From Escherichia coli (GTDB lineage: Bacteria > Pseudomonadota > Gammaproteobacteria > Enterobacterales > Enterobacteriaceae): a DNA stretch of 352 nt. The position numbers and the translations under genes were made by a program. The stretch lies in NCBI RefSeq assembly GCF_003334335.1, contig NZ_QOWQ01000209.1. One strand, written 5' to 3'. Position 1 is the stretch's first letter. Each line of letters starts with the position of its first letter. Of this stretch, positions 1 to 352 are shown one piece after another. The notes under the pieces were generated by a model that saw nothing but the letters and a program-made list of their open reading frames with translations, searched no databases and was not told where the DNA came from.

Positions 1-130
1 GCGTCACCCTGAACTGATGTTCCGTCACCCGGAAAACGAGTACGACTGGCTGAGCTCAGACGCCGCTGTGGATGAGGTCCTGCTCATCAACGAATACACC
101 TTTACCGAAGCCGGTCTGCGCGCCGGCTGA
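1..130 (+). CDS. 3' end of an upstream ORF, 5'-truncated by the window edge; product not recognised (hypothetical protein). Codon phase starts at nt 2; TGA stop at 128-130.
   Basis: Frame 2 is the only + frame open across 2-127 (42 codons: RHPELMFRHPENEYDWLSSDAAVDEVLLINEYTFTEAGLRAG*); frames 1 and 3 hit stops within the first 20 nt. In K-12 CP4-type islands the gene immediately upstream of the antitoxin is a small DUF987 ORF (yeeT/ykfH), but this C-terminus does not resemble what I recall of those proteins, so the family is left open. Confidence 0.55.
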   Translation, partial: RHPELMFRHPENEYDWLSSDAAVDEVLLINEYTFTEAGLRAG

Positions 131-152
131 CCCGTCATCGTTAAACTATCAT
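127..152 (+). promoter_or_regulatory. Weak candidate sigma70-like promoter: -35-like CTGACC (127-132), -10-like TATCAT (147-152), spacer 14 nt (suboptimal).
   Basis: Hexamer resemblance only (4/6 and 5/6 to consensus) at a position that would give a ~25-30 nt leader for the downstream GTG start. The short spacer makes this speculative; the downstream gene may instead be co-transcribed with the upstream ORF. Confidence 0.15.
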
Positions 153-167
153 TCACCGATTTTCTGT

Positions 168-172
168 GAGGA
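168..172 (+). promoter_or_regulatory. Shine-Dalgarno / ribosome-binding site (GAGGA) for the downstream CDS
   Basis: GAGGA at 168-172 lies 7 nt upstream of the GTG at 180-182, which is canonical spacing, in an AT-rich leader. Confidence 0.7.
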
Positions 173-179
173 TTTTATC

Positions 180-352
180 GTGTCAGACACACTTTCCGGG
201 ACAACGCATCCCGATGACAATGACGACCATCCCTGGTGGGGACTACCCTGCACAGTGACGCCCTGTTTCGGCGCCCGTCTGGTGCAGGAGGGTAACCGCC
301 TGCATTACCTTGCCGACCGCGCCGGTATCAGAGGCCTGTTCAGCGATGCAGA
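180..352 (+). CDS. cbeA: N-terminal part (57 codons) of a CbeA/YeeU-family antitoxin (YeeU/YafW/YfjZ family, cytoskeleton-bundling type IV antitoxin); 3'-truncated by the window edge
   Basis: GTG start at 180 preceded by a GAGGA RBS; the frame stays open to the window end. The translation matches, from recall, the N-terminus of E. coli YeeU/CbeA (MSDTLPGTT..PWWGLPCTVTPCFGARLVQEGNRLHYLADRAGIRG.FSDAD) with a few substitutions, and contains the GARLVQEGN.LHYLADRA core shared with YafW and YfjZ. The gene symbol denotes family membership; this may be a paralog rather than the K-12 yeeU locus itself. Confidence 0.85.
   Translation, partial: MSDTLSGTTHPDDNDDHPWWGLPCTVTPCFGARLVQEGNRLHYLADRAGIRGLFSDA

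Follow-up and report, generated by a model that had tools for sequence, protein, structure and literature searches.

Background

In Escherichia coli K-12, the chromosomal islands CP4-44, CP4-6 and CP4-57 share an order in which a JAB (RadC-like) gene and a DUF987 gene precede an antitoxin and its toxin (yeeS-yeeT-cbeA-cbtA, ykfG-ykfH-yafW-ykfI and lfgB-ypjJ-yfjZ-ypjF, respectively). In CP4-6 the upstream genes have been suggested to share an operon with the toxin-antitoxin (TA) pair (PMC5371832). The gap between the DUF987 and antitoxin genes is 73, 18 and 37 nt in CP4-44, CP4-6 and CP4-57 versus 162 nt in the locus described here. The window, i.e. the whole 352-nt stretch that was analysed (contig NZ_QOWQ01000209.1), is E. 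coli chromosomal DNA that contains the end of a DUF987 gene, this gap and the beginning of a YeeU-family antitoxin gene. By sequence homology, window positions 17-130 derive from a gene of approximately 214 codons in the DUF8835 family, a gene other than DUF987. They are best explained, with a probability of about 0.9, as a neutral and non-functional 3' relic of that gene left by one ancient 550-nt deletion. The finding is an ordinary one, a pseudogene fragment.

Results

Homology of the gap to a DUF8835-family gene

The window matched many genomes at 100% identity including O26:H11 str. 11368 (NC_013361.1 5581485-5581836), and related copies were present in 4,785 of 5,426 complete E. coli genomes. 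The 12 kb around the O26:H11 match served as the reference locus (L001), in which the window is 6001-6352. Seven truncated loci were sampled (L001, L008, L009, L010, L014, L017 and L018) and six loci with an intact gene were fetched (L005, L006, L007, L013, L016 and L020).

In all six intact loci a complete gene of 214 or 215 amino acids (aa) was located between the DUF987 gene and the antitoxin gene, with the same stop codon as the open reading frame (ORF) in the window and the same 49-nt spacer (window 131-179) in identical position after that stop. The last 37 codons of the intact genes aligned in frame with window 17-130 and the DNA was co-linear. The 37-aa peptide matched residues 178-214 of WP_000086755.1 with 31 of 37 residues identical (84%, E 5e-21). 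Family members are almost always 200-225 aa in length and matched end to end. Only codons 178-214 were left in the window.

The deletion and its spread

Compared with an intact locus, 550 nt were missing from the window, namely codons 1-177 with an 18-nt spacer, and a single base of codon 178. The junction read aact(g/a)ATGTTCCGTCACCCGG in seven of seven truncated loci, and intact genes read ...TTCTGG(C/T)TGTACCGTCA(A/G)CTGG at that point. A new ATG is formed by the junction with its A taken from the DUF987 stop codon TGA and its TG from the ancestral Leu178 codon (CTG/TTG), so that start and stop overlap (cTGATGt). Over the length of the gap the seven truncated loci had 84-100% identity with the window, and the junction and three relic-specific changes adjoining it were common to all of them. 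The truncated copies go back to one ancient deletion of 550 nt, which more than half of the complete E. coli genomes now carry. A junction probe (window 1-60) was covered to at least 80% in 3,077 of the 5,426 genomes, while the 5' part of the intact gene was found in 2,297 genomes including 1,939 at a coverage of at least 80%. The long spacer between the DUF987 and antitoxin genes in these genomes is the scar of the deletion. An exact DNA pattern scan of genome contigs returned only two tiny, contamination-like contigs (labelled as a Collinsella metagenome-assembled genome and as Mesorhizobium).

Loss of a gene rather than gain of one was indicated by several other loci. In the 73-nt spacer of K-12 CP4-44, the ribosome binding site (RBS) region and the first eight or so codons of this gene (ATGAGCAGAATTATC...; GGGAATTCTGATGAGCAGAATTATCGCCACTACCG) run straight into the distal ~37 nt of the spacer. 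It is the scar of an independent deletion of ~630 nt complementary to that in the window. The E. coli B strain REL606 has a full-length copy frameshifted by a 1-nt deletion (L015 169-812), a separate truncation (L019 ~700-777) spared only ~28 nt at the end of the ORF, with the antitoxin-toxin pair behind it still intact, and frameshifted forms were present among database proteins (P0043, P0094 and P0120). Together with a Salmonella island that has the gene, these argue for deletion and not insertion. The repeated inactivation of the DUF8835 gene in these islands, by the window-type deletion, the K-12 deletion, the REL606 frameshift and other truncations, suggests that the gene is dispensable once an island has been fixed in the chromosome.

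An imperfect direct repeat of 12 nt flanks the junction (11 of 12 bases identical). At the second site of the repeat, intact genes had CGTCAACTGGAA, so that two of the three relic-specific changes increase the likeness to the DUF987 3' end. Microhomology or template switching in the course of the rearrangement may have left this resemblance. In their JAB and DUF987 genes, L001 (5257-6017) was identical at 760 of 761 nt to an intact DUF8835 island (L020 3240-4000), while the relic was just ~94% identical to the tail of an intact island (H57/L005 type). This difference implies that paralogous islands have recombined into mosaics close to the 3' end of DUF987.

Constraint on the relic

Ratios of nonsynonymous to synonymous change (dN/dS, Nei-Gojobori) over the 36 shared codons were 1.28 among the relics and 0.33 among the intact genes, based on six distinct relic and five intact sequences whose pairwise values are not independent. 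The whole intact gene had a dN/dS of 0.25. Variable sites in the relic were distributed 8/9/5 over the three codon positions, compatible with the 2:1 ratio expected under neutrality (p=0.37). Counts from these six loci were 2/3/25 for DUF987 (Fisher p=1.6e-5) and 15/12/30 for YeeU (p=0.023). The whole intact DUF8835 gene had 28/14/38. Purifying selection on the 37-codon frame was therefore not detected, either as a lowered dN/dS or as a third-position bias.

Residue conservation was scaled on a family alignment of 108 sequences, in which W177, Y179, L182, N202, F206 and G210 were 94-99% conserved. In all relics W177 was deleted, Y179 was changed to F and L182 to P, with N202, F206 and G210 kept. 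T205I or R212H/C occurred in several relics, and the window itself had A198V. Comparison of the sequences thus makes relaxed constraint on the relic well supported and not proven, because the sample was small and the pairwise dN/dS values are non-independent.

The frame-2 peptide and DUF987

Frame 2 of window 2-130 reads RHPELMFRHPENEYDWLSSDAAVDEVLLINEYTFTEAGLRAG, i.e. 42 residues, with the stop codon at 128-130. The sequence-only reading of the window had quoted this translation correctly, had assigned it to the end of the gene that precedes the antitoxin gene, and had found it unlike DUF987. The dissimilarity was borne out. The 42-aa peptide had no family in an hmmscan against Pfam-A even at E<=10, the RadC and Prok-JAB models in Pfam-A included, and no BLASTP alignment with K-12 YeeT at E<=100. 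The assignment to the upstream gene was an error of frame, as that gene is a DUF987 coding sequence (CDS; WP_000692345.1, L001 5796-6017, 73 aa) that terminates with ...YVRLMSVTLN in frame 3 at window base 17, where the other ORF begins at its ATG (ATG17). RefSeq names the product 'DUF987 domain-containing protein', and residues 1-65 matched model positions 1-65 of 65 of PF06174 (E 1.7e-40).

From the previous stop codon (L001 5900-5902) to ATG17, frame 2 contained no ATG, GTG or TTG. RHPEL, the first five residues of the peptide, is therefore a misframed reading of DUF987 codons, which leaves a frame-2 ORF of at most 37 aa (MFRHPENEYDWLSSDAAVDEVLLINEYTFTEAGLRAG, bases 17-130). The repeated 'RHPE' of the peptide is due to the 12-nt direct repeat. 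The observation thus combined a mix-up of frames with a real pseudogene fragment. A different gene beside the TA pair, one of the two explanations offered for it, was correct as to the gene and mistaken as to its being inserted or intact, as it is a 37-codon relic of a 550-nt deletion. The features of the window are given in Table 1. The antitoxin translation begins VSDTLSGTTHPDDNDDHPWWGLPCTV..., and the distal ~37 nt of the 49-nt spacer upstream of it are retained in K-12 CP4-44 as well.

Table 1. Features of the 352-nt window
Feature	Position	Strand	Basis
3' end of DUF987 (yeeT-like) gene, frame 3: ...(S)VTLN, stop TGA at 15-17	1..17	+	RefSeq WP_000692345.1, ORF list, Pfam PF06174
Imperfect 12-nt direct repeat flanking the junction: 2-13 CGTCACCCTGAA, 23-34 CGTCACCCGGAA	2..34	+	Repeat search
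Deletion junction; DUF987 TGA overlaps junction-made ATG (TGATG)	15..19	+	Seven truncated versus intact loci
3' relic of DUF8835-family gene, 37 codons (178-214) and stop; probably non-functional pseudogene fragment	17..130	+	Homology, co-linear DNA, dN/dS
Conserved 49-nt spacer/leader before antitoxin gene; Shine-Dalgarno GAGGA at 168-172	131..179	+	Comparison with intact loci
YeeU/CbeA-family type IV antitoxin gene, 5' part, GTG start at 180	180..352	+	RefSeq WP_001315620.1, starts L001 6180

Gene order and annotation of the locus

The RefSeq gene order in L001 is IrmA, DUF905, DUF932, antirestriction, JAB (RadC-like), DUF987, YeeU-family antitoxin, CbtA toxin, DUF5983 and DUF957. It contains the CP4-44-type architecture of antirestriction - RadC/JAB - DUF987 - YeeU antitoxin - CbtA toxin - DUF5983, with JAB as a separate CDS (5257-5733) two genes upstream of the relic. 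As this order matches all three K-12 islands, the synteny of the functional genes is canonical and the rearranged island architecture proposed from the sequence alone was not supported. The canonical DUF987 gene and the disrupted frame upstream were both outcomes that it had named as speaking against it, and they do so in part. Further pseudogene fragments were located downstream of the TA module of the O26 island (L001 7791-8851 and 10012-11797), including DUF4942, a helix-turn-helix regulator, a phosphorothioated-DNA restriction endonuclease, a sialate O-acetylesterase and nanM (internal stop), so that the relic lies in a generally decaying island.

The 162-nt gap was without annotation in L001. 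A search with the gap alone returned 7,188 places in 3,705 genomes that were mostly unannotated, with a 'hypothetical protein' overlapping some divergent copies. Locus tag RS28980 was skipped at the relic, between ECO26_RS28975 and ECO26_RS28985, which suggests a gene call later dropped by RefSeq. The 37-aa peptide is listed in databases as a 'hypothetical protein' (UniProt Q8VQQ1, protein P0135, on at least 1000 contigs).

The parent DUF8835 family

The 214-aa protein has been named 'hypothetical', 'antitoxin of toxin-antitoxin stability system' (older NCBI/UniProt entries) and most recently DUF8835, a name that comes solely from recent RefSeq product lines for WP_000086755.1 ('DUF8835 domain-containing'). 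One such product line contains the misprint 'DUF8835 domain-containing pootine' (L020 4019-4663, matches H74 and H84). The intact protein had no match in the Pfam-A copy used, NCBIfam or PADLOC, and corresponded over its full length to PHROG 5162 (phrog_5162, unknown function; E 9e-33). No experimental basis for the 'antitoxin' name of the family was found, and a literature search returned no paper on DUF8835 or on the DUF987-antitoxin spacer.

The family comprised 1,563 word-indexed homologues and 3,508 clusters at 50% identity. The homologues were almost all 200-225 aa in length, aligned end to end, and occurred in Enterobacteriaceae and many Alphaproteobacteria. An AlphaFold2 model built on the 108-sequence alignment had a predicted local distance difference test score (pLDDT) of 94.5 and a predicted template modelling score (pTM) of 0.86. 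The model is a single, integrated alpha/beta domain. Residues 178-214, which span the end of a long helix, a second helix and a short hairpin, do not make up a separate unit of it. No relatives of the intact protein were found in the PDB by sequence or by fold.

A Salmonella contig has the same island type in the order DUF987 - CbeA - CbeA - DUF8835 - CbtA - DUF5983 (L021 4054-6084), in which DUF8835 follows the antitoxins and immediately precedes the toxin, and is not upstream of the antitoxin. A Tistrella homologue (L022 5001-5645) is located in a conjugative region (DUF2958, ParB, DUF736, NikA-like, relaxase and T4CP coupling protein) that has no CbtA or CbeA. This context makes the family look like a general accessory gene of mobile elements.

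Several E. coli strains have lost the DUF8835 stop codon through a small deletion in the spacer, so that the gene runs on in frame into that of the CbeA/YeeU antitoxin. The fusions (P0003, P0020, P0025 and others) are 342-343 aa in length and read ...TEAGLRAG-LPEDFI-VSDKLHETN... in the part that corresponds to window ~128-180. A chromosome of 4.66 Mb carries one of them, and another was present on 8 contigs. The fusions may be the origin of the 'antitoxin' name or hint at a functional link.

Discussion

The preferred explanation starts from an ancestral CP4-44-type island that had a DUF8835-family gene of ~214 aa between DUF987 (yeeT-like) and the antitoxin gene (yeeU/cbeA-like). A single 550-nt deletion took away the 18-nt spacer, the RBS, the start codon and codons 1-177, joining the DUF987 stop to codon 178 and by chance making an ATG that overlaps the TGA. 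Because of this ATG the region is sometimes predicted to encode a 37-aa 'hypothetical protein'. What is left amounts to 17% of a single-domain protein, with half a helix, a second helix and the terminal hairpin. It is drifting neutrally and most likely has no function of its own. Its persistence is explained by its position between two retained genes with which it is probably co-transcribed.

Three observations weigh against a neutral relic. All seven sampled copies have kept the ATG and the open 37-codon frame without indels at up to ~15% divergence, the TGATG overlap of stop and start is the classic arrangement for translational coupling, and the most conserved motif of the family (VDE...YTF..G) has been retained. 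The open frame was rejected as a sign of function, since stop codons arise from 3.9% of single-base changes and the probability of no stop after 20-30 neutral substitutions is 0.30-0.45, which makes it uninformative.

These same features would be expected of a real small-protein gene, translated through termination-reinitiation coupled to DUF987 and yielding a micropeptide with the C-terminal helix-hairpin of DUF8835. Several pipelines do call the peptide as a protein, and the region is probably transcribed given the operon suggested for CP4-6 (PMC5371832). We nevertheless consider such a gene very unlikely. The dN/dS of ~1.3 and the lack of a third-position bias set the frame apart from the two genes on either side of it in these loci, residues conserved in the family have been replaced, and ATG17 is an accident of the junction with no Shine-Dalgarno-like sequence upstream of it on direct reading of the sequence. 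RefSeq/PGAP has no annotation there in most genomes, and K-12 CP4-44 is without the segment, yet its CbtA/CbeA pair works (PMC5371832). A narrower version, in which the TGATG-coupled peptide with its DUF8835 C-terminal motif had some activity such as interfering with intact DUF8835 paralogues or with the CbeA/CbtA module, which the natural DUF8835-CbeA fusions link to the family, would be a long shot. If true, it could explain why more than half of E. coli genomes have a scar without stop codons in this frame.

It is likewise very improbable that the retained 113 nt act as a non-coding promoter, leader or RNA element needed for yeeU-cbtA expression. In favour of such a role, the length of relic and spacer was constant in all sampled copies, and both are kept in thousands of islands. 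Against it, a scan of L001 5700-6400 found no sigma-70-like promoter or terminator on the plus strand, an Rfam search at E<=10 returned only two minus-strand matches at chance level (E 6.4 and 8.9), and the RNA fold of window 1-200 had a z-score of -0.78 with no structure signal. Variation affected 22 of 108 relic positions, denser than in the flanking genes, and both K-12 CP4-44 and L019 have kept antitoxin and toxin genes without most or all of the segment. Most of the probability not given to the relic falls to the coupled micropeptide and to a role in cis, and positive support was found for neither. The two explanations offered from the sequence alone, a divergent DUF987 protein that ends in this peptide and an intact foreign gene placed next to the TA pair, are refuted. 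Nothing except the dissimilarity of the peptide to YeeT speaks for either. The true DUF987 gene (PF06174) ends at base 17 in another frame, the peptide has no Pfam match and no alignment with YeeT, its frame is startless before base 17, and just 37 of the 214 codons of the other gene are present.

The neutral relic is relevant mainly to annotation, as Q8VQQ1 and many GenBank entries are best treated as a pseudogene fragment of a DUF8835 gene. It does not challenge the current understanding of CbtA/CbeA islands.

Comparison with known systems

The YeeT/YkfH/YpjJ proteins (PF06174) have a true member encoded directly upstream, overlapping window 1-17, to which the frame-2 peptide is unrelated in frame, Pfam content and BLASTP alignment. 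The likeness to the DUF8835-family gene (e.g. WP_000086755.1) is one of homology, with in-frame co-linearity over codons 178-214 and the stop, the same spacer and the same antitoxin gene following. Compared with the intact gene, 17% remains in the window, the RBS, start and codons 1-177 having been deleted, near-invariant residues on the side of the junction are altered, and purifying selection is gone. The yeeT-cbeA region of K-12 CP4-44 (73 nt) is in the same position of the same island type and likewise marks where this gene was lost. CP4-44 keeps the 5' end, with the RBS and about eight codons (MSRIIATT), and the distal ~37 nt of the spacer, whereas the window keeps the 3' end of 37 codons and the whole 49-nt spacer.
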